A stretch of DNA of 61,375 nucleotides, filler included, from Bacteriovoracaceae bacterium (GCA_018649885.1; 3 parts of 3 records of this genome joined end to end with filler, not necessarily neighbours in it); one strand, 5' to 3'; counted from the first letter of the whole stretch, positions 21,990 through 41,275 are shown. Made by a program: numbers and translations. The notes: a model not told the origin generated them from the letters alone.

Positions 21990-24900
21990 ATGATTGCAAA
22001 CAAAAAGACCACTTTTCTAACACTTGCTTTGAGTATGGTTTTCTTATTTTCTTGTACAAAGAAAAGAGAAGATGAATTTGCACAAGGGGTTGACACTAAT
22101 CTTTTTCAAGTTTCGAGTTATCATGGTAAATATTTTGAGCTAGACACTCAAGATGAATTATATCCAGGAGATGCTTTGGTAGAGGAAATCCAAGATAGTC
22201 AAACTGAAGATATAATGAATTTACTTCCCAGAGTGAAATATACTACAAATGCAAAACTTTTGACTGAAATTCCATTTTTTGGAAAACCATTTCACCAATA
22301 CACTATTAAATATGAAATCCTAGAAGCTGCTCAAGTTTTGAGAGTCTTAAAAGTTGCAGAGAAAAAATATATACATGGGCCTGAATTAACTTATGCAGAG
22401 GAAATCCCTGGTACTAATTTACTTCAAGTACCACTTCTTGGTTATGATATTTCATTGAAAAAATTAGAACATATAAAAAACGAATCAAACGAAGATACCA
22501 ATAGACTAACATCATCAAGCGCCAATTCACTTGTTAGCGCCACACACTTCGAAGCAAACTTCAACGCCCCAATCTTGTTTGATGCCGTATCAAAAACAAA
22601 TATTTATCCAGCCGATTTTTTTGATTTTGATTCTGAGTGGTTTTACTCTTCAACGATTGTAACTACCAATGAAAAAAGTAAATCTGACATAGGCATGGGA
22701 CTAGAGTATGACTTTGTTGATTTTAACGAGGCTACAAGAATAGTACTAATCAAACGACCCCATAGTATTAAGGCCAAAAATTTAAATGCTGATGAGAGAA
22801 TTAAAACAGATACTGATAATGAACAAGAGATCAACTTAAATACTGTTATGAAAATTAAAGTTGACTGGTTAGACTTTGCCAACCCCCAAAATGATGCTGG
22901 TGGAAATGGACTTGTTGAGGAAGTGGTTGAAGAAGGTGATTCTAAGAGCGTACATTGGAAAAAAACAAAATTCATGAGAATAGATTTTAACGAAATTAGA
23001 GCATTGGAAGTCTCAGGACACCAAAAAGAGCTTAGGAAACTTGAAGTCACTCCTGATTTTATTAGTTTTAATCTATACATACCCGCTAAGAAAATAGAAA
23101 TGAAATTTTCATTTCTAAAAGCACATAAGGCCGTGACTGGTAAAAATTACTTTGTAAAAGATAGAACTGTCTTTGGATATTTTAAATCGATTCAATCTAT
23201 TATTAATAACCAAGAATTTGAACATCAAGAAGATTTTGAGAAAAAAACATTTATAAATAGATTTTATCCGAAAGATGGAAAAATCATTTATCATTTTACA
23301 AAAAATTCATCAAAAGAATTAAGACCTGCCATGATCGAAGTGGCCAAGGCCTGGAATCAAGCTTTTAAAGATGCCGAAACGGGAATTACCTTTGAAATTG
23401 ATGAAAGCTTTGATGTTAATCTCGGCGACATAAGATATAATGCCTTAAATATTTTAGATGGCATTAGTGACAACGGACACTTAGGTTTTGGCCCCTCTAT
23501 CGCCGACCCTATGAGTGGTGAAATTATTTCGGCCTCTGCGAATATGCTGGTAAATCCAATTCGTTCAATGATTATGAGAGACTTAAGAAATTACATTTTA
23601 TCAGAGTTAGGTAAATTAGATTCAAAGTACCTCATTTTACCTTCAGTTGATTTAGGAGGCCCACTTTCTCCTAAAAAGATTGTTTATCTAAAATCTCAAA
23701 AGATGATTACCGAAGAAGAAATCGCAGATTATCATCGCTTAATAGAAAGGTTTCAAGGAACCGAAAATATCAAATCAAATTTTTCCTTAGGAAGCCCTTT
23801 TGTACAAAAAGCATTGGCACAAATTCAATCGTCACATATGGAGGGCGTCACAGATTTTACTGAGATGAGACTTGATAGTGAGTTTAAAACAAGTAGCTAT
23901 ATCTCGAAGCTAAATTCTGCATTAAACCATAATTCCTATTGGAAAAAGTTCGCTCTATCTGGATTCAAGGATCATAGACGTAAAAATTTAAGTGTTACAA
24001 TGGGAAGATTACATGCTCAGGCCAAAGAAAAGTGTCCTATGCTAGCTGAATATATTGAAGAGTTGAAAGAAAGTAAACTTAGTTATAATGACAAAGATCT
24101 TTCAGTAAAAGAAAGTTGTGCCAATAAGTTACTTCCTCATGTAATGAAAGTAATTGCAGTTCATGAAATCGGCCACAACCTAGGCCTGAGACATAACTTT
24201 GAAGGCTCACAAGATACTCAGAATTTTTATCCAGCAAAAAATAGTGATACACCACAAGTGTTAACGGCCTCAACAATGGACTACTTGCCTGATTGGTCAG
24301 CAGGTTTAATCAAACCAGGTAAGTACGATATCGCGGCCATTGCATGGGCATATGCAGACAAAGTCGTTGTATCGGATACTGACTTTGTTGACATAGATCC
24401 TGAGAAATCGATTCAAGAAAACTTTATTGGTAAAGAGGTGAGACCGAAGAAATTTAAATTTTGTACAGATGAAGATGAAACTAGCTTTAATCTAAATCCT
24501 CTTTGCAACAAATTTGATATCGGGGGAACACCCCTTGAATTTGTAGAAAATCATATTTATCGATTTAATGCAGCTTACGCGTTAGGTTTTAATAGAAATG
24601 GAAAAATTTCATCTCCTGATTTTGAATGGGAGAATGCTAGGGTAGTAAGCTCATTAATCGCAATGAGAAGAGTTTATGATATTTATAGACACAAACTCAA
24701 TGAACTTACGGGTCTAGAAAATGATAAATACCTTGTTAAGTACGATGAAGAAAAATTTGAAGAATTATTACAAAGGATGAAAACAGATCCTAGGTACAAA
24801 GATTTCTACGATAGCTATAGACCAGCAGTCGAGAGAATTTTTGAATTTCTTGTATCACAAGCTTTTCAACCAGATAAATATTGTATCTTCAATAATGGCG

Positions 24901-26087
24901 AGAAAGGCCAAGCGGTGCCTTTTATGCACTTCCAGTCTACTTTATTTTTAGACAAAGGAGTTACCGCAACAGCATGTAGTGATTATATTGAATTTAGCAA
25001 AAAGCACTTTGGTACTTTTGTAACTTCTACTGGGGTTCCTGTTTCTACAATCAAGGGTATCCTTGGTGGTGAATTGGAATATTATGACCTAGGTAATGGC
25101 AACGAAGGGCTAATCGTTCCCAATGAAGTTTTAGGTGCAGGCTCAATAAGAGCTGCTGCCATGGGGTTTCTTGGCCATAGAGATCCAAATCTTATTCGAC
25201 AAAATCAAATCGGTCAATTCGTTCCAAATATGTTAGATGAACCAAAGTTCAGAAGAATTGTCGAAGATAAGTTAAGAGAAAGATTGCTTATAGGTCAGCC
25301 TGTTTCTGAGCTGAAATTGGAAGAAGGAGTCATTAAGGAGACTCATTTAATAAAATTTAAAGAGGAAATGGCATTGCTAGCAGGTATGTTTGATTTATTT
25401 AAACAAGGAATTAGCGTGCCTGATAACTATAGGGTTACTCAAAATAGATTGACTCCATACACAAATACGACTCCTATCGAAAACCCTGAATTGTATAAGG
25501 TCTCCGAAGTAAAATACAATATCGGGTCTGATTTCTATGGGGCAAGTTCTGAATTGCAAGGACAGTCTTTCCAAGTTGAGACAACAAGTTATATAAAAAG
25601 AATTCTTCAAATTGAATCGATGGAAACACTTGAATTTAATCAAAGTATTTCTGAAGGTCATATTGGCGCCCTTGTCAGCGCCTTGGGATTTGACACATTA
25701 ACTAAGGATGAATTCAAAGCGATGAGCCAAGTTAAATTTTTAGAATGGTCAGAAAAACTACTCAGCGACCTGGAAACATTTTCTCCAGAAATTAAAGGCG
25801 CTGTAGATTTAGCATTTGGTGAGACCATCTATTATGTTTCACAAATAAGAGAAAATATGGAAGGAAGTATTGCTCAAGGCATGGAACCTGCAGAAGAGCT
25901 TGGGTTTATTGGCACTGTCTTTGAACAAAATGGGCTTTCATTACCAAGCGTACCGGTTAATGACATCACAATTTTGACTACAGAGATAAATGAAGCAATA
26001 GTCGAAAGCAACAAAAGTTACTATGAGTTTCGTGATAATGCATTAGAGCTCGAAGCACAAAAAGATTTGTTGATCCAAATATTTTAG
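21990..26087 (+). CDS. Large zinc-dependent metzincin lipoprotein (EcxA/DUF4953-like)
   Basis: LFSC lipobox; WNQAF, GDIRYN and GFGPS..DPMSGEII motifs; HEIGHNLGLRHN; Met-turn STMDY. Confidence 0.88.
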   Translation: MIANKKTTFLTLALSMVFLFSCTKKREDEFAQGVDTNLFQVSSYHGKYFELDTQDELYPGDALVEEIQDSQTEDIMNLLPRVKYTTNAKLLTEIPFFGKPFHQYTIKYEILEAAQVLRVLKVAEKKYIHGPELTYAEEIPGTNLLQVPLLGYDISLKKLEHIKNESNEDTNRLTSSSANSLVSATHFEANFNAPILFDAVSKTNIYPADFFDFDSEWFYSSTIVTTNEKSKSDIGMGLEYDFVDFNEATRIVLIKRPHSIKAKNLNADERIKTDTDNEQEINLNTVMKIKVDWLDFANPQNDAGGNGLVEEVVEEGDSKSVHWKKTKFMRIDFNEIRALEVSGHQKELRKLEVTPDFISFNLYIPAKKIEMKFSFLKAHKAVTGKNYFVKDRTVFGYFKSIQSIINNQEFEHQEDFEKKTFINRFYPKDGKIIYHFTKNSSKELRPAMIEVAKAWNQAFKDAETGITFEIDESFDVNLGDIRYNALNILDGISDNGHLGFGPSIADPMSGEIISASANMLVNPIRSMIMRDLRNYILSELGKLDSKYLILPSVDLGGPLSPKKIVYLKSQKMITEEEIADYHRLIERFQGTENIKSNFSLGSPFVQKALAQIQSSHMEGVTDFTEMRLDSEFKTSSYISKLNSALNHNSYWKKFALSGFKDHRRKNLSVTMGRLHAQAKEKCPMLAEYIEELKESKLSYNDKDLSVKESCANKLLPHVMKVIAVHEIGHNLGLRHNFEGSQDTQNFYPAKNSDTPQVLTASTMDYLPDWSAGLIKPGKYDIAAIAWAYADKVVVSDTDFVDIDPEKSIQENFIGKEVRPKKFKFCTDEDETSFNLNPLCNKFDIGGTPLEFVENHIYRFNAAYALGFNRNGKISSPDFEWENARVVSSLIAMRRVYDIYRHKLNELTGLENDKYLVKYDEEKFEELLQRMKTDPRYKDFYDSYRPAVERIFEFLVSQAFQPDKYCIFNNGEKGQAVPFMHFQSTLFLDKGVTATACSDYIEFSKKHFGTFVTSTGVPVSTIKGILGGELEYYDLGNGNEGLIVPNEVLGAGSIRAAAMGFLGHRDPNLIRQNQIGQFVPNMLDEPKFRRIVEDKLRERLLIGQPVSELKLEEGVIKETHLIKFKEEMALLAGMFDLFKQGISVPDNYRVTQNRLTPYTNTTPIENPELYKVSEVKYNIGSDFYGASSELQGQSFQVETTSYIKRILQIESMETLEFNQSISEGHIGALVSALGFDTLTKDEFKAMSQVKFLEWSEKLLSDLETFSPEIKGAVDLAFGETIYYVSQIRENMEGSIAQGMEPAEELGFIGTVFEQNGLSLPSVPVNDITILTTEINEAIVESNKSYYEFRDNALELEAQKDLLIQIF

Positions 26088-29605: not shown

Positions 29606-29641
29606 GAGCGAAAGTATCTATTATATTAAGGTGCCAGGTAC

Positions 29642-29780
29642 GAATGCTGCTAACTTAAGAACCATCATCTAGGCTACCTTGCCCTTTGAAAGGCCCTGGT
29701 GGCCACTTCTTCGAGAATATCCCCATTCTTGTTTTTTTGCATTTTTCCGGTCCGTTGTTAGTAAACAATATCGACTGTTT
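29642..29780 (-). mobile_element. IS4-family element end (transposase C-terminus + terminal IR), truncated by the contig end
   Basis: Minus strand reads NSRYCLLTTDRKNAKKQEW...* then CTTAAGTTAGCAGCATTC; identical copy at 40826-40964. Confidence 0.65.
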
Positions 29781-29880: not shown

Positions 29881-30019
29881 ATGAATTAGGATTTATTGAC
29901 GATATAGAATATAAATTCACATCGGGAGAAAGCCCCTTTAACTTCCGAGTAGTTAAGAAAAACACATAGTGTAAAGTATGTGTCGCTAATAAATAGTAAA
30001 GTATGTCTCGGAAAGTTCA
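29881..30019 (+). mobile_element. IS481-like element 3' end (transposase C-terminus + right end)
   Basis: ELGFIDDIEYKFTSGESPF...* (stop 29967-69) resembles IS481 C-termini; tandem GTAAAGTATGT-x-TCG repeats ending GTTCA. Confidence 0.55.
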
Positions 30020-30170
30020 AAAGTCACCAGTGTATTGAAGGATATATGAAAATTACGGGTTTTTGTTTGGGAGGGCAAGGGCAACTGCCAAGGGCAATTT
30101 AAAGAAAAAGGGGGGGGAAAGCCTGGGCGTCTTTGATACCCAGGGCTAAGCTATTTATTCATTACAATAA

Positions 30171-30506
30171 CTACGGTCTTGGAAATGGACCTCTTGGTCC
30201 TCTTGGACCTCTAGGTCTTGGGTCATATCTTCTACGGCTGACTCTACGACAGCCTCTAACTTTTTTCTCTTTAATCAGTTTAGTTGTTCCCAAACATGGG
30301 TTAGTAACTAAACACTTTCTCTTATACACTTTGCACCGGTAAGTACCATTTCTTCTAGACTGTTTTTTTACACCTTTACTCTTCCACCGCTTACAAGTCT
30401 TGTGAGCATCATGAAATAGACACCTTTGTCCAGGCCGCTTGTGTGACTTTGCATTGGCAACACCAGCAAACATCATCAAACTGATGACAATTAATAAAAG
30501 TTTCAT
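30171..30506 (-). CDS. Secreted highly cationic 6-Cys miniprotein with a (GPR)n Pro/Arg tail
   Basis: GGGAG RBS, signal peptide ending ANA, tail PRPRGPRGPRGPFPRP. Confidence 0.75.
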   Translation of the reverse strand: MKLLLIVISLMMFAGVANAKSHKRPGQRCLFHDAHKTCKRWKSKGVKKQSRRNGTYRCKVYKRKCLVTNPCLGTTKLIKEKKVRGCRRVSRRRYDPRPRGPRGPRGPFPRP

Positions 30507-30691
30507 TTGATCTCCCTTTTTAGATATGCATTGTCATACCGAGCAAAAGGGTGCAAGTCAAAGGTGCAATTTGTCCCCACAAACTTTACTATAATGTAAG
30601 ATTCCTATGTTTTGAAACAGGGATTTTTTTCATAAGACTAGGTAATCATTATAAGGAGAAAGCTAGATTGATGTCAGAGACGTGGGTCTCA

Positions 30692-33409
30692 TTACGTATG
30701 GTCTTTTTTATTTTTGCGGTCAACTTCAGTTCCGTACAGATGTTCGTCTACTTTTTCAATTGTAGTGAGACCATTTAAAACCATTTGAAGCCCAAACTCA
30801 TAAAGGGATCTAAACTCACCTGTATTCTCAACTGCATCGACGAGGTCAATATAATTAGTAGAAGATAGTATGGCATTTTCAATGGTATTGCATTTCTCCC
30901 AATACTCATAGACTGGAATTCTTCCAATATATCCATCTTCAGAACATTTATCACAGCCCTTGTTTCTTGCAATACTCTTAACTTCTTCACCCGACTTCAT
31001 AATTCCTGCAAGTGTATCTTTTTCAACTTGATGTGGCTCACCCTCTTCCTTGCAAATAGGACATAGTGCAGGAATAAGTCTTTGGGCCATGACACCAATT
31101 AATCCTGAGGCAAGCACAGATGAGCTGACGCCAAGTTCTCTTAACCTTGGAACAATATCCATCGAGCTATTGGTGTGAAGTGTGGCGAATACAAGATGCC
31201 CTGTAAGGGCGGCTTCAAAAACAAGCTTCGCCGACTCGTCATCCCTCACTTCGCCAACCATGATAATATCGGGGTCTTGTCTTAATACATGCTTTAAGAT
31301 TTTTCCACAAGTTAAGCCGATTTTATTTTTCACCTCAATTTGAGTAATACCGGGAATAACAACTTCAACAGGATCTTCAATTGTAATGATATTTTTATTT
31401 ATGGAGTTACTTTCGTGAAGTAGAGAATAAAGAGTTGTAGTTTTCCCAGATCCTGTAGGCCCTGTGATTAAGAAAAGCCCTTGCTTATGCCTAAGTACAT
31501 TTTTTAGAAATTTAATGACCTTCTTATCGGGTGCCAAAATTTTAAGTGGAAAAAATGGAGTCCTACTTCCAATTAATCTCATCACACACTTTTCCCCCAG
31601 TTTTGAAGGAACCATTGAAACTCTTGTCTCGTAGTCTAAATCATCGAGAACAATTTTCAACTGACCGTCTTGAGGAAAGCGCTTCTCTGTTATATCCATT
31701 TCTCCCACAACTTTTATTCTACTAATGAGCTTTTTTCCACTTTCATAGTCAATTCTTCTTTGAAGCTCACTTAAGTTGCCATCAACTCTAATTCTGATGG
31801 CATAGCTATCTAAAAATGGATCAATATGTATGTCAGAGGCCCTCATTTCGTAGGCCTTAAAGACTAAGTCCTCCAAATATTTAACTGGATCTATATTTTG
31901 AATGTTATTTTGCTCAACAAGGCTAACAGGGCCCGATGATTTTTTTTGGTGCTTCATCACATATTGATGAACCCGTTCAAATTCATCTTCATCAATAATC
32001 ACAAGAGTAATTCTATATTGAGGGAGATAGCGATTGAGAACCTCGAAGACTTTCTCTTTTTTAGGGTTAACAAGACCTACGACCAAGTCGTCACCTGTGA
32101 TTTTAATTGGCATTATTTTGAGTGAAGTAATCACCGACAGTGGAAGCAATTCTTTGTCGATTATTTCTTTATTAAATACAATTCCATCATATAGTTTTAG
32201 TTGTATCTCTCGATTTAATTCTTGCAGTCTTTTAGCAAGTAATTCCGCTAGCGAAATAGAAAAAGCAGGGAATTGAAATAATTTAGCAAATACTTCTTTG
32301 CTGATAGTTAGTAAGGTAACAGGCGTCTGTGCAACTACTGTCAGCAGGTGATCTGTTTCGCTAATGAGTGATATTTCACCAACAATTTTTCCTTGCCCCA
32401 GAGTTGCAGCTAATGCCTTTCCCCCACTTTGAAAATCTTTAAGAATATTTACTTTTCCTGTTTTAATCAACATCAGCTCAGGACTCTTTCGACCAGGCCT
32501 AGTTATAACCTCCCCTGCTTTAATATTCTTTGTGCCAATATAGGGAAGAATCTGAGAAATTACATTGGGAGGAATTGAGGCGAAGGGATGCATCGCCTGC
32601 AAAAACTCTTCAGTAGTGTAAGGCGTGTCAGGAATTTCATCACGCTCTTCCTGGAGCTCATCTTGCTCCATATTGATAGAGTCCACCGAATTAAAATACT
32701 TTAAAACCCGAGGTAAATTACCGTTAAAATCACTTTCATTTATCACGTGAATAATGACTTCTATGCCATTTAAATATGAACCCATTGCTTCAAAAAAATC
32801 AGCTCTCTTGGGATTTCTCATTGCTACATGAAAAAGATTGCCGACTGTTTTAAGCGGAAGAACTTTATATTTTTCTATAAAAGTAATAGGCATTATATCT
32901 ACTACTTTTTGTGAAAGATCTAGGTCTTCCTCCTTAAAATAATCGATATAATTGTGCTCCAAACTAAAATCAATATGCATTTTTGCTAAAACATCCACCA
33001 TTTTCTTACCAACAAGAGGGAACTTTTCGATGGTCTGATAAAATACCTCTTGGTCAATAACATAGAGAGTAGTATTTTCTAGGGCAAAACAAGAGGTGGA
33101 GTGAACAGACTTAGTAAGCGCTGACAATTCAGAGAAATGATCTCCAAGGCCAAAGACTTTAATTCTCACAATATTGTGCAAGCTTTTTTTATAGCTTACG
33201 ATTTCAACTGATCCGCTTTCAACAAAGTAAATATAAGAACTTGCTTCATTTTCAATGAATACAGGATCACCTTCTTTATAGTTTTTAACCACTGGGTTTT
33301 CTGCGATAAAACTAATTGCCTCATCAGAGGCCTCAGAAAGAAAGAGACCTTTTTTCAAAAGTTGATGAACACTGGTCATATCCAATTCACTTTTCTTAGC
33401 AGTCGACAT
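30692..33409 (-). CDS. PilB/GspE-family secretion/pilus ATPase with two N-terminal cNMP-binding + GspE_N modules
   Basis: ASDIHID, RIRVDG, GPTGSGKTT, TIEDPVE, LRQDPDIIMVGEVRD, TGHLVFATLHTN and CPIC..CDKC motifs; two CAP-like domains in the N-terminal ~490 aa. Confidence 0.92.
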   Translation of the reverse strand: MSTAKKSELDMTSVHQLLKKGLFLSEASDEAISFIAENPVVKNYKEGDPVFIENEASSYIYFVESGSVEIVSYKKSLHNIVRIKVFGLGDHFSELSALTKSVHSTSCFALENTTLYVIDQEVFYQTIEKFPLVGKKMVDVLAKMHIDFSLEHNYIDYFKEEDLDLSQKVVDIMPITFIEKYKVLPLKTVGNLFHVAMRNPKRADFFEAMGSYLNGIEVIIHVINESDFNGNLPRVLKYFNSVDSINMEQDELQEERDEIPDTPYTTEEFLQAMHPFASIPPNVISQILPYIGTKNIKAGEVITRPGRKSPELMLIKTGKVNILKDFQSGGKALAATLGQGKIVGEISLISETDHLLTVVAQTPVTLLTISKEVFAKLFQFPAFSISLAELLAKRLQELNREIQLKLYDGIVFNKEIIDKELLPLSVITSLKIMPIKITGDDLVVGLVNPKKEKVFEVLNRYLPQYRITLVIIDEDEFERVHQYVMKHQKKSSGPVSLVEQNNIQNIDPVKYLEDLVFKAYEMRASDIHIDPFLDSYAIRIRVDGNLSELQRRIDYESGKKLISRIKVVGEMDITEKRFPQDGQLKIVLDDLDYETRVSMVPSKLGEKCVMRLIGSRTPFFPLKILAPDKKVIKFLKNVLRHKQGLFLITGPTGSGKTTTLYSLLHESNSINKNIITIEDPVEVVIPGITQIEVKNKIGLTCGKILKHVLRQDPDIIMVGEVRDDESAKLVFEAALTGHLVFATLHTNSSMDIVPRLRELGVSSSVLASGLIGVMAQRLIPALCPICKEEGEPHQVEKDTLAGIMKSGEEVKSIARNKGCDKCSEDGYIGRIPVYEYWEKCNTIENAILSSTNYIDLVDAVENTGEFRSLYEFGLQMVLNGLTTIEKVDEHLYGTEVDRKNKKDHT

Positions 33410-33480
33410 GAAAATTTCCTAAGTTTCGAGCACTTATACTACTCGGAGAAAAAGAAAAACGAAGTTAGAGCTATTTGGTA

Positions 33481-34839
33481 TTAACGTCCAATAACAGACA
33501 AGAGTGCTTGGAGAGGTTTTTGGTAATTTCCTACGTCAAAACGTTTTTGATACAACTGTGCAAAATCACTTGTTCCCTCACCACTTTCAAAGCGAGTAAT
33601 GAGAAAGTCGGCCACATCATGGGCCAAGATAAAAAGACAACTTAATACTGGAGTATTTGAAGCTGTTAATTTCCGTGGAAAACCATCACCTTCAGGAGTT
33701 TCATGATGGTCTAAAATCATAGTTCTAGCATCTTCTGGGAAATTAGAAATTTTAGTTAAAAGATCCCCAGATTTTTTCATATGCTCTTTCACATCTTTTT
33801 TCAAAGATGGACTTAGACTGGTATAAAGAGATCCTGAAAGTATTTTAACCCTCGCTGCCCCTTCATCTTTAATATAAATGTCGTGCAATAAAGCGGCATA
33901 AACCATTTTTTGCTGACCCTCTTCAGTCGCCCAGTTTAATTGTTGCATCATAGAGCAACCTAAAAAAGAAGTTAGAATGCTGTGTGAATATAAGTAGTCT
34001 TTTTTAAATACTAAAGACGAAATCATTTTCTGGACATTTTTTTTCTTAGATACACTACCTACGATATTGCCAACCGAGGCCTTAACAATATTTGTTAGAT
34101 GAGGATCGACGCCGATATTATTTAATATTTCCTGGCTCTCTTCAAGGGCCTTCACCTGTAAATTGGCCATGGCCTCAGGCGACGAGTCGACTACTTCAAA
34201 AGATTCAAATATTTTCTGGCTTTCATGTTTGATATAACTCAAATAATCTTCAGTGGTCAGAAAGAAATATTCGACGCCTTTATCTTGGAATTTTTTGAGG
34301 CCATCAATATCTAATAAATCCCCTTTTTTAAATCTTTTTACTAATTTGCCCTCTGACAATCGAACATATAGATCAACATCTTCTCTAGGGTTTTCTATAA
34401 ATTTCGATATTCGTATTTTAGAGTAATTTTGATCATTTTTATTTGAGTCATCGCCATGACCGAGCATGGTTTGAACCGCGTCCATTAGGCTCTTTCCATT
34501 AATATTTTTCTTTAGAATAAATGAATTTGATGGGTTGTCTAAGCGCATGGTTGAAAGGGCCTCAAGCTCTTCCGGTCTATAAGCGGAGATTAACAAAAAA
34601 GGAACAAGGAGCTTTCTCTTTTTCACCTCTGCATATAATTCATCACCACTGCCTGGCTCCATTTGATAACCTGAGCAAATTAACTCAAACTCACCACTGT
34701 ATTTATCAAGGGCCTTTATCGCCTCTTTGCCATTTTTGACTTCTATAATAGGATTTTCAAGCTGAGATTCTACACACAGATGAATAAGACTTCTAAGGTC
34801 AACACTTTCATGGGCAATGAGTATCGGTTTTAATGCCAT
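33481..34839 (-). CDS. Pseudo-receiver + HD-GYP-like phosphohydrolase
   Basis: REC fold lacking the phospho-Asp (LICSGYQM); YSHS, LLHDI, EH and HHETPEGDGFP motifs. Confidence 0.8.
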   Translation of the reverse strand: MALKPILIAHESVDLRSLIHLCVESQLENPIIEVKNGKEAIKALDKYSGEFELICSGYQMEPGSGDELYAEVKKRKLLVPFLLISAYRPEELEALSTMRLDNPSNSFILKKNINGKSLMDAVQTMLGHGDDSNKNDQNYSKIRISKFIENPREDVDLYVRLSEGKLVKRFKKGDLLDIDGLKKFQDKGVEYFFLTTEDYLSYIKHESQKIFESFEVVDSSPEAMANLQVKALEESQEILNNIGVDPHLTNIVKASVGNIVGSVSKKKNVQKMISSLVFKKDYLYSHSILTSFLGCSMMQQLNWATEEGQQKMVYAALLHDIYIKDEGAARVKILSGSLYTSLSPSLKKDVKEHMKKSGDLLTKISNFPEDARTMILDHHETPEGDGFPRKLTASNTPVLSCLFILAHDVADFLITRFESGEGTSDFAQLYQKRFDVGNYQKPLQALLSVIGR

Positions 34840-34849
34840 TTATTCCTCT

Positions 34850-36667
34850 TCAGTGCTTCTTCTCGATTAACTTGAGTTTTTCTTTGATAATTTTGCCCTT
34901 ACGTTTCCAAGTAAGCTCTATTTCATCGCCCGGTCTGTAGTATTTCAGGGCAAAGGCCAAATCATATAAACTTGCAATTTCAATTTCACCAAGACCTATA
35001 ATGATATCTCCTGGTAGAACCTTGGCCTTTTCTGCAGGGGAGCCCTTAGAAATCCTGACACATTTAACGCCTTTAATTTCATCTCCACCGCCAAACTTAG
35101 GTACACAACCCAAGTGCGATCCATAGCCTCTGGCACGTCCCGCGTCCCCGCTATCTTTCGAGTCTGGATCAAAAATAAGAGATTTAGAATCTTCAAAATA
35201 AGAAACAATTTTCTCACTTAAAAAAGCGACCTTTCTCAAGCTAGAGATATCGAGTTTATCAAAGTCATCACTTGCCCGGTGATAATCTTCATGGGCCCCT
35301 GTGGTAAAAAAGAGTGCTGGGTATCCATTTTGAATAAAAGAGGCATGATCACTTGATCCAACCGAAGAGTTTTGAAGTGAAAGAGGTAGTAAACTCCCCC
35401 CAACTTTCGATGATTTTATCACTGAAATAATTTTATCAATGTGAGTTTGCCATTCAAAAGCACTTCCAATACCCATGACAGAGAGCTTATCTTGAAATCG
35501 TCCCACCATATCAAAATTTAACATCCCCAAGATCCCACCATAAGCGTCTTTGTATCTTGGGTAACTACTTACAAAGTGAGCACTTCCAAGAAGTCCCATT
35601 TCTTCCGCATGGAAAAATGCAATAATGACAGATCTTTTGCTTTTTTTCAGGCTCAATCTTTTTGCTAGCTCTAGAACAACAGCAGTTCCCGAAGCATTGT
35701 CATCAGCTCCATTATGTATTTTCTTAATATGAGGATTGTCCATACTAGTGTGACCACCAAACCCCAAATGATCCATATGTGCTCCCAAAACTAACACATC
35801 TTTTAAGGAAGAATCAGAGCCTGGAATAAAACCCACAATATTGGCCACTCTTCCCGTTTGTTTTTTAAGGTGAATAGACAGGTTCACCAGTAGATCTTTA
35901 ATTACAAATGAATCAGGTTTTTGAGAGCTTGAGAGACCCTTTTGTAAACTAAGAGTGGTGATCCCTTTAGGAAGCAAGCTACCTACCCAGCTATTTTTTA
36001 CAAGGCCTGTTAAAATATTAAAGCTCTCTCCCCCTCCTTCACTTTCGTTGAAAAAAGGAGCAGCCTCTCTTTTCAGATCTTTAATACTCATGGGGTTTTG
36101 AACCATAAGAACTGCACTTGCTCCAAGTCTTGCTGCATTTTTTATTTTATAAAAAATTGATCTATATTTTATATACTTTGGATTTCTAAAAAGTGATTTT
36201 AAATTTCCAATACCAGGGTCACCTGTTAACAAGATGACCACTTTCCCTTTTACATCAAGGCCTTTGTAATCATCGTATTCAAAAGACTTGTCTTTCAAAG
36301 AGATACCAAAGCCTGCAAAAACTATCTGCTGAGATTTAAGCTCACCTGAATTTGAAAAGGCCAGTGGTTCAAAGGGCGCAACAGCTCCACTTGCAACGCG
36401 AAGTTCATTGGATCCAAATTTTTTCATTTTAGTAAAAATAGTGAATTCTTGACGGTGAGATGATCCAAAGGGGGCAATCTTTAACTCTTTTAACTTCTTC
36501 TCAAGATAATTTGAAGCCAGCTTTCCACCAGCTGACCCTGCTTTTCTCCCCTCCATTTTATCATGAGATAATTCTTTTAAAGTTGTGCTTAGAAAATCCT
36601 GGGCAAAAAGGGGAAAAGAAAAAACTAAAACCATCAAAATTTTAACAAGACTTTTAAAACTATGCAT
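34850..36667 (-). CDS. M28 aminopeptidase with PA and PDZ domains
   Basis: GAHMDHLG, GADDNASG, AEEMGLLGS, NFDMVG, SDH and YH motifs; C-terminal GSPAEKA..PGDII. Confidence 0.92.
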   Translation of the reverse strand: MHSFKSLVKILMVLVFSFPLFAQDFLSTTLKELSHDKMEGRKAGSAGGKLASNYLEKKLKELKIAPFGSSHRQEFTIFTKMKKFGSNELRVASGAVAPFEPLAFSNSGELKSQQIVFAGFGISLKDKSFEYDDYKGLDVKGKVVILLTGDPGIGNLKSLFRNPKYIKYRSIFYKIKNAARLGASAVLMVQNPMSIKDLKREAAPFFNESEGGGESFNILTGLVKNSWVGSLLPKGITTLSLQKGLSSSQKPDSFVIKDLLVNLSIHLKKQTGRVANIVGFIPGSDSSLKDVLVLGAHMDHLGFGGHTSMDNPHIKKIHNGADDNASGTAVVLELAKRLSLKKSKRSVIIAFFHAEEMGLLGSAHFVSSYPRYKDAYGGILGMLNFDMVGRFQDKLSVMGIGSAFEWQTHIDKIISVIKSSKVGGSLLPLSLQNSSVGSSDHASFIQNGYPALFFTTGAHEDYHRASDDFDKLDISSLRKVAFLSEKIVSYFEDSKSLIFDPDSKDSGDAGRARGYGSHLGCVPKFGGGDEIKGVKCVRISKGSPAEKAKVLPGDIIIGLGEIEIASLYDLAFALKYYRPGDEIELTWKRKGKIIKEKLKLIEKKH

Positions 36668-36690
36668 TCTATCCTCACAAAAGAGACAGG

Positions 36691-37170
36691 TTGAAAATTA
36701 TGATTAGAGAAGAGTTGCTCCACCCCATCATTGTTCACTTTCCCTTGGCCTTTTTGGCCACGGCTCCACTATTTAAAGTGGGTGAAGTTTACTGTCTGTT
36801 CAGCAAAAATACCATAGGTAACACTATATCTAACTTCTATAAGCTCTTTTTAGGGCTGGGGTTTCTTGGACTTGTGTTAAGTCTTTTCCTTGGAGACACA
36901 GCAGCGGAAATTACCAAGAATCAAATATGTGATCTTACTCTGCTATACCAGCATGAAGAGGCCGCTCACAATGCTCTCTACCTTTATATAAGTGCTGGAA
37001 TCTTTGAGTTACTGCAGGCCAAGTTCAGACCCAAATGGATGGCGAGCTGCAGTTTGGTGCTACTTTTTGTGGCCACATATTTTCTTTTGGACACAGCTCA
37101 CCTAGGAGGAGAGCTGGTTTATGAACATGGCGCTGCCGTCATGCTCGAAAAGGCCTCCAGTTGTCATTAA
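36691..37170 (+). CDS. DUF2231-like membrane protein
   Basis: LHPIIVHFPLA and HLGGELVYEHG motifs; about four TM helices. Confidence 0.8.
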   Translation: MKIMIREELLHPIIVHFPLAFLATAPLFKVGEVYCLFSKNTIGNTISNFYKLFLGLGFLGLVLSLFLGDTAAEITKNQICDLTLLYQHEEAAHNALYLYISAGIFELLQAKFRPKWMASCSLVLLFVATYFLLDTAHLGGELVYEHGAAVMLEKASSCH

Positions 37171-37192
37171 CACAGCAGGCCTTCTCCTAACT

Positions 37193-38014
37193 CTAGGAAG
37201 TTTTAGTCTCTACCTGGCCTTTCTCGTAATTAAATTGACTACCCATTGTACTATGGGGAATTGAATACATAATCATCAATACAACTGCCGCCGCTACCAT
37301 TGCAGCAGGCCTTCTCGTTTTGATATTCACTGCACTTGCAAGGACCCAAGCAACAACAGAAATAAGAAGTTTATTGTCAGTCAAATCCCAGTCATAGGGA
37401 AAACCTGCCCAGAAAACACCGAAGGCATATTTTTGCACTATAGGTCCGAGAATCATCCCGCCCACAAGTAAACACCCTGTGGTCATCAGGCCAATCATAA
37501 AAAAGCTTCTGGTTTTTTTCAAGGCCTCTAAGGCCGCAAGAACTGATAAGAGCATTGATAAAAACATAAAAAAGATATGGGGAGCCAAAACAAATGTAGG
37601 GACGTTCCCCTTGTAACGAATAACAATTGGCTTTGTTCTACTAGCAAACCCAAATTTTTCACCACTGGCCTGTCCCTCAATATAATAAATCAACTTACCT
37701 GCTGGCGGTTGATTGGGAAGAGTCGCATGCAGTCTGGCAGCTTGTTTTTCAAAGGGAATTTCAGACCATGAGTCATTAGTTGGAAATCTTTTATAAAACA
37801 ACTTGGCGCTCATATTTTCTTTTAAAAGTGGGATCTCTACAGGAGCACCAACACTTCCGCCCTGACTTCTAGGGAATTTAATTTTGACGCTTTTGCCGCC
37901 AAGTTCAAATTGATATTTTTTTGGGTATGTAGGTCCTGTGGATCTTTGATAAATGACTGCAATTAAAGTGATCATAATCGCCACGGGAAGAGTTATCTTA
38001 AAATTGTTTTTCAA
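37193..38014 (-). CDS. Conserved membrane hypothetical protein
   Basis: YQRSTGPTYP, QPPAGKL, GPIVQKYAFG..W.GFP and DLTDNK motifs; several TM helices. Confidence 0.75.
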   Translation of the reverse strand: MKNNFKITLPVAIMITLIAVIYQRSTGPTYPKKYQFELGGKSVKIKFPRSQGGSVGAPVEIPLLKENMSAKLFYKRFPTNDSWSEIPFEKQAARLHATLPNQPPAGKLIYYIEGQASGEKFGFASRTKPIVIRYKGNVPTFVLAPHIFFMFLSMLLSVLAALEALKKTRSFFMIGLMTTGCLLVGGMILGPIVQKYAFGVFWAGFPYDWDLTDNKLLISVVAWVLASAVNIKTRRPAAMVAAAVVLMIMYSIPHSTMGSQFNYEKGQVETKTS

Positions 38015-38087
38015 TTTCTCACCTATACCTTTTTATAGACTAGTGTTATAAGCGCCTAAAACTATCAAAAAATTAGGGAAAGTAATA

Positions 38088-38933
38088 ATGGAAAAACTGT
38101 CTTTCATCACCAAATATTTTGTACTGCTAAATTTAATACTTCTAAGCACTAGTGCTTTAGGTGCTGAGCAGAAATCAGAAGCCCAATTTACTGCTCCCAA
38201 AGACCTCGATTTAGAGTTTTTAATCTTGTCGCAACAGCTAAAAGATAGAAAAGAGCACAAACCCATAGGTCTTTACACAAAATTTGATACGTCACTACTA
38301 TATTCAGTAACTGAGAGTGATCAAGTGAGATTGTTTCAATCTAGTATCTATGAATATTATGGTGACAAAGATGACGGCGAAAATAAGTTATACCCAGAGC
38401 TTGCAGAGGCCATGTACCGTAGAAAGAAAATTCTAAACCAAAAAGACCAATTTATAGACCTCGATCTCGAACTCAAAACCTATTACGTTATGGATGATGA
38501 TCTAAGAGAAAGATGGGGTTATAATGGATCGTTTATTCCTCAACTTGTGGCCCAGAAAAATATTCTGCCTTGGCTTCATGTAAAATCAAAAATTCGCTAC
38601 CACCTCAATTATATAACGAGTGGAGAGCCCACTACTACTCGCAGTGAAATAAGGTACTACCTATCTCCTACTATAATTTTCAGTCGCCAATTTATGTTTA
38701 ACACAGAGCTCACTTATAAGCACAAAATTAAAAACCGTAAAACGGCTTACACAAATAAATTCTATGACTACCTTGAACTTCGCCCATCTATGCTTTATTT
38801 GGTATCGAGAAACTTAATGACAGAGATTTATGGCGAAACAATGCTAATGAGAAGCCATGACGGTGTCACTATCTCTGAAACGGCTGGAGAAGAGTTTGTT
38901 ATAGGAGCTGCCCTATACTTATCAGTCTTTTAG
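38088..38933 (+). CDS. Putative outer-membrane beta-barrel protein
   Basis: Signal peptide, amphipathic strands, C-terminal LYLSVF. Confidence 0.6.
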   Translation: MEKLSFITKYFVLLNLILLSTSALGAEQKSEAQFTAPKDLDLEFLILSQQLKDRKEHKPIGLYTKFDTSLLYSVTESDQVRLFQSSIYEYYGDKDDGENKLYPELAEAMYRRKKILNQKDQFIDLDLELKTYYVMDDDLRERWGYNGSFIPQLVAQKNILPWLHVKSKIRYHLNYITSGEPTTTRSEIRYYLSPTIIFSRQFMFNTELTYKHKIKNRKTAYTNKFYDYLELRPSMLYLVSRNLMTEIYGETMLMRSHDGVTISETAGEEFVIGAALYLSVF

Positions 38934-40364
38934 TTTAAAAAGAGTTTGTGGATTTAGACTCTCTCCATATCTTATTTTATAAGTGAGAATTTTTTTCCAA
39001 CTTTTTTTAATTTTACCTGTAATAGTTTTTCTTTCTTTTTCCACGTAGATTTTGACTCTAAATACCTCAGGTCTTAACCAGATTTTCAAAACAACCACTT
39101 TCATTTTGTGCTCTTTCATTTCTTCAATTTCAAATCCATCCAAGTTGACCACATCTGTATTAAAAACCATTGGTTTTATATCAAAAATGATCTCTATTTT
39201 CTTAGTAGGTTTTTTTATGATTTTTGAAACATAAGGAAAGCCTGCATGGAACTCGTGATTTGACTCTTCGGTGTTAAAGTCTTTACTCTCACCTAGAGTT
39301 ACTCCCCAACCAAGAGAGGAGTTTTTCATTTTATTGGTGAACATCCCTCCTTCTTCTTCGGCCCTTTTTATCATCCTTTCAGTTAATTTTAGAGAGTCAA
39401 ACTTGCCATCAACAATATCGTCAACATCAGAAGTCGTTCTTTTACAATCCCTATGAATGCTCACTCCCAGAGATTTAATGCAAGATGTATTAGTGGCAAA
39501 ACCTCCAAGACGGATATCATCATGTGTTGCCCTAAACACTCCGTAAACCTCACCTGAAGTTCCGATCAGAGGAGCTCCCAAGTAAGTTCCACTATCAAAA
39601 GACATATCGCACTGGTGAAAATAAATATTTGATGAAAACGGAGTATCGTATTGGGGAACTAAATTAGATCTGTCTCCAGCCACGCAATGAGAGCTCTTTA
39701 AACCTATTTCAATTTTATTATCACTTGATTCAATGGCCACCAACTTGGAGGCATATATAAATAGAGAGGAATCATATGCAACACCTGATTCGTTAACTTT
39801 GAGTCCCGGGTACTCAACCTCACCTTCCATTTCAATAATAGCGTAATCAAATAACACATTTACACTATCATCTCCTAATCTTTGATCTTTTTTATCCACA
39901 AGCTTGGTGGAGGTTCTATAAGTGTGTCCAAGAACACTTTTCCCATCCTCAGCAACATCAGGAAAAAATATATAGAACACATCAAGGCCGTCTTTATAAT
40001 CAGGAGGAATACATTTCGAATTGGTAAGAATCTTAGATTTCCCTATTAATGATCCAGAACATAACGCCCTAATATCTCCCTCAGCACTAGTTAAAACCAA
40101 CGAAACAGCTGCTGGATTCCAATCAACTAATAACTCATTTTCCTCTATGGAAAATAAAACCTCAAAGGGAAGATCTGGATTGTCGGCCCCATTTTGGTGC
40201 TCGCCCTTGGAGCTTTGAGGGGCAGGCTCAGCACCTTGAGATTTAACTTCAGCGGCACCTGTGGATCCATTTGGTCCTCCACCTTCATCATCACTTTCAT
40301 CTGAACAACTTGAAATAAATAGGCAAATTAAAATCATAAGAAAAAGTTTTGTTAGACTATTCAT
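38922..40364 (-). CDS. Lipoprotein with a degenerate trypsin-like (S1) domain
   Basis: ISSC lipobox; LCSGSLIG, ILTNSKCI, DYAIIE and GTYLGAPL..GEVYGV motifs. Confidence 0.7.
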   Translation of the reverse strand: MNSLTKLFLMILICLFISSCSDESDDEGGGPNGSTGAAEVKSQGAEPAPQSSKGEHQNGADNPDLPFEVLFSIEENELLVDWNPAAVSLVLTSAEGDIRALCSGSLIGKSKILTNSKCIPPDYKDGLDVFYIFFPDVAEDGKSVLGHTYRTSTKLVDKKDQRLGDDSVNVLFDYAIIEMEGEVEYPGLKVNESGVAYDSSLFIYASKLVAIESSDNKIEIGLKSSHCVAGDRSNLVPQYDTPFSSNIYFHQCDMSFDSGTYLGAPLIGTSGEVYGVFRATHDDIRLGGFATNTSCIKSLGVSIHRDCKRTTSDVDDIVDGKFDSLKLTERMIKRAEEEGGMFTNKMKNSSLGWGVTLGESKDFNTEESNHEFHAGFPYVSKIIKKPTKKIEIIFDIKPMVFNTDVVNLDGFEIEEMKEHKMKVVVLKIWLRPEVFRVKIYVEKERKTITGKIKKSWKKILTYKIRYGESLNPQTLFKLKD

Positions 40365-40642
40365 AAACCCTCACAAAGCTTCTCTCAAACTCATCTCGGG
40401 ATATATCTTATAACCAAAGCTAGTTTTAAAAAAGGAGGATTGTACAAATTATCCAATAAATTTTGTTTTCTAGGGCATTTGGTCTTAGGGAAGAACGATA
40501 GTGTCAAAATGCCATAATTTTAAGGGGACTTGGCCTATAAATTAGAAATAATATCGCCTAAATATCCAGTATTACATTGAGCTTTTCTGAGCTTATGAGA
40601 ATTTTTTTTACTAAGTTATAATTATCAACTACGTAAGATTTA

Positions 40643-40825
40643 GTGGAGCCTATTATGTTCATGAATAAAAAGAGCAGACAATCAGGGATGTCAATGATCG
40701 AAGTGATGATGATGACAGCTATGATGGCAGCTCTCGCCGTTGGCGGAATGAAAATGATGAACTCTCAGCTCAATAACACTAAAAAAATTCAAGAAAAATT
40801 TGAAAGACAAAGTACTGCCAACACC
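40643..40825 (+). pseudogene. Prepilin/pseudopilin N-terminal fragment interrupted by an IS4 element
   Basis: QSG|MSMIEVMM type IV prepilin motif with Glu+5 and a hydrophobic helix; the frame runs into the IS terminus at 40826. Confidence 0.75.
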
Positions 40826-40965
40826 GAATGCTGCTAACTTAAGAACCATCATCTAGGCTACCTTGCCCTTTGAAAGGCCCTGGTGGCCACTTCTTCGAGA
40901 ATATCCCCATTCTTGTTTTTTTGCATTTTTCCGGTCCGTTGTTAGTAAACAATATCGACTGTTTC
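40826..40965 (-). mobile_element. IS4-family element end, second identical copy
   Basis: Identical to 29642-29780. Confidence 0.65.
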
Positions 40966-41065: not shown

Positions 41066-41275
41066 CAGCAATGTTTTTTAGATCATCAAATGACATGTTA
41101 AAATATTGGCAGAAAAATTACGATTGGCCAAATAATATAAATGACATAGGGCCGCACCGGCAAAAAGATAGAAGGGCCCGACAACTTATTGGGCAGTTAC
41201 GAGAGGTAAGTGACTGAAGAGGACCCCGAGCCCCCTGAGAATCAAGTGAGGTATGTTGGAGAGTATTATTTTTAT

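Follow-up and report, generated by a model that had tools for sequence, protein, structure and literature searches.

A tandem-CNB PilB/GspE-family ATPase of Bdellovibrionota with an altered and strongly conserved first CNB pocket

The window, a 61,375 nt stretch of DNA from a Bacteriovoracaceae bacterium (GCA_018649885.1), consists of three contigs joined by N linkers. On the minus strand it carries an open reading frame (ORF; 30692..33409) for a 905 aa protein, labelled P0001, in which two cyclic nucleotide-binding domains (CNB1 and CNB2), each followed by an N1D domain, stand in front of a PilB/GspE-type ATPase core. The CNB1 pocket departs from the canonical form and is strongly conserved among related proteins. 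The gene lies on a contig of 11,085 bp (window 29881–40965), so its true neighbourhood is limited to that interval.

Gene and domain architecture

The domain order of P0001 is CNB1-N1D1-CNB2-N1D2-N2D-ATPase, and its features are as follows.

30692..33409 (−), whole gene, tandem-CNB PilB/GspE-family ATPase, 905 aa (P0001)
32957..33379 (−), CNB1, aa 11–151, CAP-type fold with a rewired, strongly conserved pocket (Pfam, model, alignment)
33092..33136 (−), cassette 1, aa 92–106: S93 for Gly, E94 kept, S96, H103 for Arg, S104, S106
32684..32956 (−), N1D1 (T2SSE_N repeat 1), aa 152–242, lacking the conserved Arg of N1D2
32615..32683 (−), acidic low-confidence linker, aa 243–265 (pLDDT <50 at 244–262)
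32210..32614 (−), CNB2, aa 266–400, nearer to the single-CNB family, CAP-type fold with a weakly conserved pocket
32339..32383 (−), cassette 2, aa 343–357: G344 and E345 mostly kept, H354 for Arg in 28/50
31937..32200 (−), N1D2 (T2SSE_N repeat 2), aa 404–491, conserved R460-Y461-L462, putative stator-docking domain
31550..31894 (−), N2D of the motor core, aa 506–620, invariant R596 and R611 (Pfam, alignment, fold match)
30737..31549 (−), ATPase domain, aa 621–891 (fold match and alignment)
31439–31462 and 31250–31276 (−), Walker A and Walker B in the ATPase domain, which also has an Asp box and a His box
31052–31063 and 30944–30955 (−), four zinc cysteines in the ATPase domain

Pfam places cNMP_binding (E 3e-34) and PF05157 (T2SSE_N, now named MshEN) in two stretches each, and T2SSE at aa 510–887 (354 bits, cut-off 24.9). 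The two front modules can be aligned with each other (25% identity, E 3e-17), and an AlphaFold model (mean pLDDT 76.9, pTM 0.49) shows the domains as expected. The architecture proposed in the initial annotation was thus borne out, and all four peptides quoted there are present in the translation. Both N-terminal CNBs also model as CAP folds, as had been supposed: the predicted models match CAP/PKG folds with Z 18.5 (rmsd 2.2 over 140 residues) for CNB1 and Z 19.0 (1.9 over 142 residues) for CNB2, each with a CAP-type beta-roll, hinge and C-helix. The N1D repeats were assigned from Pfam and profile alignments, separate fold-search support being confined to the CNBs and the core.

Homologues were gathered from protein collections and genome searches, giving 54 rows after removal of one exact duplicate and two near-copies; 41 of these carry both CNB1 and the ATPase and are distinct full-length proteins. 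Their existence, together with a single contig of metagenome run X3 that spans 31497–33606 of the window with zero differences, shows that the gene is no assembly artefact. At least half of its words are present in 9 of the 20 listed marine metagenome runs, four of which were compared with the window.

Pocket residues of the two CNBs

The register of the pocket was taken from alignment to solved CNBs. Of the canonical cassette residues, P0001 has the Glu in both domains, while the Gly and Arg are replaced in CNB1 (S93, H103) and the Arg in CNB2 (H354, with G344 kept). The initial annotation had described both cassettes as GE-x7/8-R with His for Arg; cassette 1 in fact begins SE, a change of the Gly that was not flagged, and the His lies nine residues after the Glu.

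Cassette 1 is the best-conserved 15-residue window of the N-terminal half. Mean pairwise identity over the 41 proteins is 0.55 for this cassette, compared with 0.48 for the ATPase domain, 0.30 for cassette 2 and 0.23–0.25 for the N1Ds. Across the tandem family its Gly site is Ser or Ala in 50/51 sequences (Gly in 1/51), and its Arg site is His in 23, Lys in 19, Arg in 6 and another residue in 3 (n = 51), so that a basic residue is found in 48/51. The other positions are conserved within the family: Glu (E94) in 49/51, Ser96 in 49/51, Ser104 in 42/51 and Ser106 in 50/51. Outside the cassette, the loop Gly site is mostly Asn (Gly in 4/50), and the C-helix Arg is found in at most 1/50, with Leu, Met or Ile in 44/50. 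The cassette Gly is present in 555/561 unrelated CNB stretches, a set dominated by multi-CNB proteins, and in all 13 CNBs of the same genome; the S/A-E-x-S cassette pattern was seen in none of 609 background CNB stretches. Positions 84 and 103 covary (Lys or Arg with His, Ala with Lys), but this tracks two subclades and therefore counts as one event. Judged from the alignments, four canonical CNB1 pocket residues are replaced in concert, yet the cassette is strongly constrained, and this is the telling feature of the family. One genome (G740) carries two divergent tandem-CNB paralogs (L142 and L143), one of the His type and one of the Lys type.

No standalone CNB with the rewired cassette was found; the nearest standalone CNBs, which sit next to motAB-like genes, have canonical cassettes. 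These are 150–170 aa proteins of Bdellovibrionales (L136–L140), with a motA-like gene at all five loci and both motA- and motB-like genes at four.

CNB2 is more relaxed. Its cassette has Gly in 32/50, Glu in 34/50 and His at the Arg site in 28/50, the C-helix Arg is present in 30/50, and the cassette identity is near the CNB2 domain average (0.27). The Arg-to-His change said to be shared by both cassettes is therefore true of P0001 and common in the family, but His occupies both sites in only 12/50 proteins and also occurs in 41/558 unrelated CNB stretches, many of them from four-CNB proteins. The four-CNB group (P0109, P0111, P0113, P0116, P0124 and P0165; ~870–1080 aa, no further Pfam domain) has His at the Arg position in many cassettes.

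Motor core, relatives and origin

The statement that all ATPase motifs are intact was upheld, as Walker A, the Asp box, Walker B, the His box and the N2D Arg pair are all found in P0001. Alignment A5 has 50 rows, 47 with the core, and leaves out pseudo-ATPase and N1D2-less members. All 47 cores have R596, R611, E678, E682, E720, R722, H745 and the zinc tetracysteine C783/786/819/822, and 44/47 have H738; P0001 has every one of these. Two features that tell extension ATPases from retraction ATPases, the tetracysteine and N1D, are both present in P0001 (PF05157 twice). One subclade (L144:6534–9167, L145:6686–9313, L155:6699–9332 and P0096) has a degenerate Walker A and keeps the CNB1 cassette; P0096 is also degenerate in Walker B and the His box, and this subclade is likely a pseudo-ATPase.

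The core of the predicted model matches the folds of GspE, PilF and PilB. It shares the N1D-N2D-ATPase arrangement, the Walker, Asp and His boxes, the Arg pair and the tetracysteine with G. metallireducens PilB (5TSG/5TSH), V. vulnificus GspE (4PHT) and V. cholerae EpsE (1P9R), at 36–37% identity in Foldseek alignments. P0001 differs from these in having two CNB-N1D modules in front, in lying outside any pilus or type II secretion system (T2SS) cluster, and in belonging to the tandem family, a single long-branch clade of the ATPase trees. Neither standard assignment applies: P0001 is below the cut-off of the type IVa PilB equivalog TIGR02538 (405 bits, cut-off 675.65), falls in a separate clade and has no pil neighbours, and it is below that of the T2SS GspE equivalog TIGR02533 (398.9 bits, cut-off 630.25), with no gsp neighbours. 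The genome's own clustered PilB and GspE score 660.6 and 629.3, respectively.

The top PDB sequence match of P0001 is Thermus thermophilus PilF (6F8L, 913 aa), in which the N-terminal GSPII module is repeated, three copies being present. This match covers profile positions 397–891 only, and PilF has no CNB; its modules bind c-di-GMP (PMC11656802). In the c-di-GMP-gated MshE and the MshEN-bearing PilB proteins, as in P0001, a sensor directly precedes the alpha/beta N1D (MshEN_C), but P0001 lacks the four-helix MshEN_N and has a CAP-fold domain instead, twice. The 24-residue MshEN_N c-di-GMP motif, defined in work on V. cholerae MshE (PMC5013675), was found in 0/50 family members by the full and core patterns, the full pattern being strict enough to miss the four paralogs of this genome as well.

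An atlas search with P0001 residues 10–245 revealed PilB-like ATPases of ~660–700 aa with a single CNB, in clusters with 1307, 339 and 169 members and most often from Myxococcota. With one such protein, found in the phylum, as the query there were 273 matches, of which 120 were listed, and 80 of those listed have one N-terminal CNB. Among these 80 the cassette is canonical (Gly 80/80, Glu 80/80, Arg 77/80), as are the loop Gly and the C-helix Arg (77/80 each). They share the CNB-N1D-ATPase order with the tandem family and have the N1Ds most similar to it, the tandem N1D profiles scoring medians of 46 and 41 bits against them and 21 and 13 against other PilB/GspE proteins; they differ in having one module and the G-E...R cassette. 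An orphan member with a canonical cassette occurs in a Bdellovibrionota genome (L135:9566–11560). Another group of GspE/PulE-family proteins, P0221–P0261 (~1000 aa, some named from Patescibacteria), has Pfam lists that suggest an extra ATPase region.

Trees were built with ordinary PilB/GspE proteins from a scan of genome contigs as context. The tandem and single-CNB groups were joined at 96/89 in a careful ATPase tree (44 rows) and with support of 88 in quick ones; against a single-CNB origin, FastTree set the tandem clade beside an orphan GspE-like type found on contigs C72 and C82. In the module tree repeat 1 and repeat 2 each form one supported clade, so the duplication is older than the radiation of the family. 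The stem of module 1 is the longest (0.90 versus 0.47 and 0.49) and is followed by radiation, as expected of a change of function followed by constraint. The earlier proposal that a CAP-like domain stands in place of MshEN and was duplicated is supported by the missing motif, the CNBs at that position and the two repeat clades. From these comparisons, the tandem family likely arose by duplication of the front module within the widespread single-CNB family. This descent is graded as likely and no higher because FastTree differs, because approximately unbiased (AU) tests reject none of the placements, and because the single-CNB set was gathered by similarity to one member.

Occurrence, partner machine and candidate ligand

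Tandem-CNB motors are a rare subfamily of Bdellovibrionota, here in a marine genome. They were found in 4/237 genomes of the window's family and 9/401 of a phylum sample (both counts including this genome), in 21/251 Bdellovibrionales genomes by a CNB1-plus-N1D match, and in 1/52 genomes of one Bdellovibrio genus. The Bdellovibrionales search gave 26 initial matches, five being short standalone or partial CNBs, and 19 of the 21 loci were retrieved. Members from protein collections may have a source outside Bdellovibrionota. A search of the phylum of G538 (a Hydrogenedentota record) gave 0/81, which is uninformative, as it had no positive control.

The gene is an orphan at all 25 loci examined (4–20 kb each). 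None of the 285 neighbouring ORFs matches any of 17 own-genome queries for pilus, T2SS or Tad genes, none has a prepilin-like start, and no neighbour is conserved beyond close relatives, confirming that platform and secretin genes are not adjacent. The genome encodes four further PilB/GspE-type ATPases. A complete pilus cluster (pilB-pilT-pilC-pilA...pilMNOPQ) on contig C79 holds a separate pilB, and a complete T2SS cluster (gspC-D-E-F-G...L) on C45 holds its own GspE; PilM, PilQ, GspD and GspF pass NCBIfam cut-offs, while the other names derive from position and sequence. Two orphan GspE-like ATPases (C72:6419–8212 and C82:54837–56672, genome G000) group together on a long branch. The suggestion that P0001 drives the predatory type IV pilus does not fit its distribution: the occurrence is patchy, so a core role in predation is unsupported, and the pilus cluster has its own pilB. 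A place among the core components of that pilus was rejected on the counts given above.

In homologues, N1D is thought to dock on PilM or GspL (PMC8389850, PMC11656802). R460 (43/50) and Y461 (44/50) of N1D2 align with an Arg conserved in the single-CNB family and are absent from N1D1, which points to N1D2 as the docking domain. Shorter members of ~830–845 aa apparently lack N1D2 (L111:8723–11257, L153:980–3478, P0091 and P0093), a loss seen by alignment for L111, P0091 and P0093.

Given its rewired but strongly conserved CNB1 pocket, the motor likely responds to a signal that is neither ordinary cAMP nor ordinary cGMP. The best explanation, which we hold tentatively and at slightly less than an even chance, is that P0001 is an orphan accessory motor that serves a pilus or secretion machine whose genes lie elsewhere, and is switched through CNB1 by a ligand that is probably not a 3′,5′-cyclic nucleoside monophosphate (3′,5′-cNMP). 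Such a motor would form a hexamer and hydrolyse ATP as PilB and GspE do, and would dock on a PilM- or GspL-type stator mainly by N1D2. Ligand in CNB1 would shift the C-helix and reposition the N1D that follows, altering docking or ATP turnover, with CNB2 serving as a relaxed second site or a structural partner.

That the CNB1 ligand is a nucleotide other than 3′,5′-cNMP is given the same guarded weight, close to but below even. The kept cassette Glu would suit a ribose, and the basic residue and several Ser an anion; candidates are a 5′- or 2′,3′-nucleotide, a linear dinucleotide or a cyclic dinucleotide. The initial annotation's preference for a ligand other than cAMP is thus probably right, given the pocket replacements, but gating by a cyclic nucleotide such as cCMP or cUMP is unlikely: PycTIR binds cUMP through canonical G86, E87 and R97 plus C-helix R138 (PMC11224242), and of these contacts CNB1 keeps the Glu alone. 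A precedent is the trypanosome PKA regulatory subunit, which has an altered CNB cassette and binds nucleosides (PMC10959531). There too the cassette Arg is systematically replaced and the ligand changed; trypanosome PKA retains the Gly and has acquired a Glu in place of the Ala, whereas CNB1 has Ser or Ala for Gly, Ser for Ala, and a basic residue kept. A bolder proposal, which we consider rather doubtful, is that CNB1 could be a receptor for an unrecognised signal or for a nucleotide new to CAP folds (2′,3′-cNMP, 5′-NMP, pGpG/pApG or 3′3′-cGAMP), which would let some Bdellovibrionota swap a signal-gated ATPase into a pilus or T2SS and so bring a nanomachine under direct two-input control.

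Several observations weigh against an accessory motor with a new ligand. The basic residue, Glu and Ser104 remain in CNB1, which leaves room for weak binding of cAMP or cGMP; three class III cyclase domains are encoded in the genome, all on contigs other than the gene's, and Bdellovibrio is documented to use cAMP signalling (PMC6717892). Conservation of CNB1 could instead reflect a protein-binding surface. No tree links the tandem ATPase to any single machine, and AU tests reject none of its three placements (PilB, GspE or the orphan C72/C82 type; p 0.12–0.52). One subclade (L111, P0091) has no N1D2, which is therefore not indispensable, and another (P0096, L144, L145, L155) has lost Walker A/B; some members can thus do without motor activity.

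A motor still gated by cAMP or cGMP, in which the substitutions merely lower or retune affinity, is improbable. The cyclases, the retained Glu (49/51), Ser104 (42/51) and basic residue (48/51), the Arg kept in six members and the canonical cassette of the likely parent family all suit it, as does Bdellovibrio Bd1971 (cNMP-EAL), which senses cAMP and cGMP (PMC6717892) and, like PycTIR, is a bacterial CNB sensor fused to an output enzyme, though with an output domain different from that of P0001. However, a Gly near-invariant elsewhere (555/561, 13/13 and 80/80) is Ser or Ala in 50/51 CNB1s, with replacements at the C-helix Arg and the loop Gly as well; four concerted changes fit a new ligand better than tuning.

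It is also improbable that CNB1 binds no small ligand and that the cassette is a protein-binding or packing surface, such as a CNB1-CNB2 C-helix pairing, with regulation by a partner protein. The joint loss of several ligand contacts, the conservation of C-helix L141/A142 and L391/A392 in both repeats, and the precedent of protein cofactors that act on PilB through its N-terminus in other bacteria (PMC11656802, PMC8389850) would agree with this, but the conserved positions, the small polar pocket residues E94, S96, S104 and S106 together with a basic one, are in register with known ligand contacts, and none of the 25 loci has a conserved partner gene nearby.

Less probable still is that P0001 is no working motor and acts as a subunit for signalling or dampening, either by mixing with the resident PilB/GspE or by competing with it: the constant orphan state, long branch, low equivalog scores (405/676 and 399/630), pseudo-ATPase subclade and signalling role of PilB in M. 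xanthus (PMC11656802) fit it, but the catalytic residues are invariant in 47/47 A5 cores (the pseudo-ATPase subclade lying outside A5), and there are working orphan motors, such as TfpB, that serve as second motors for extension (PMC11656802). A Pycsar effector (a CNB fused to TIR/TM next to a pyrimidine cyclase) was rejected, since PADLOC matches cover only CNB2, reflecting CNB similarity only, and no cyclase is among the Pfam matches of the contig.

The tandem proteins are a real, conserved and apparently undescribed PilB/GspE-type subfamily and belong to a wider set of fusions between CNBs and motors. No paper on CNB-fused PilB/GspE was found in the open full-text literature, a scope outside which supplements lie (PMC5013675 has architecture tables in which fusions of this kind could appear); none was found on single-CNB PilB-like ATPases, and 'cNMP' is absent from the main text of a myxobacterial pilus survey. 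The 2024 PilB review (PMC11656802) describes direct control of pilus motors by c-di-GMP via MshEN, with cAMP acting through transcription. CNB-fused motors point to another direct second-messenger input besides c-di-GMP, and the tandem subfamily, rare and from uncultured genomes, combines a rewired pocket with strong constraint. If the favoured reading is true, it would be a second repurposed CNB pocket after trypanosome PKA, and it would bear on the sharing of a single machine by orphan PilB paralogs. A soluble domain of 150–240 aa makes the ligand question tractable without culturing the organism, and the canonical single-CNB relatives provide a natural control.

Directly upstream on the same strand (33481–34839 (−)) is a REC and HD-GYP-like protein with Bd1817 as its best PDB match (E 2e-8). 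An operon with this gene was rejected, as the arrangement is not conserved; at one other locus, L105, an HD-GYP-like gene lies in convergent orientation and shares just a short motif with it. On the other side (30171–30506 (−)) lies a gene for a basic protein of 111 aa that contains Cys, begins with a signal-peptide-like stretch and ends in a Pro/Arg/Gly repeat tail; it has no match in Pfam or PADLOC. A promoter scan found 26 sites where 17.7 were expected, and none of them is informative for the tandem-CNB gene. The neighbouring contig encodes a 1365 aa lipoprotein-like protein with an HEXXH-type motif (21990–26087 (+)), unrelated to the motor. Repeats of ~140 bp, insertion sequence (IS)- or MITE-like, at 29628–29780, 29881–30021, 40816–40965 and 41066–41206 are common to many contig ends of the genome and account for the breaks in the assembly.

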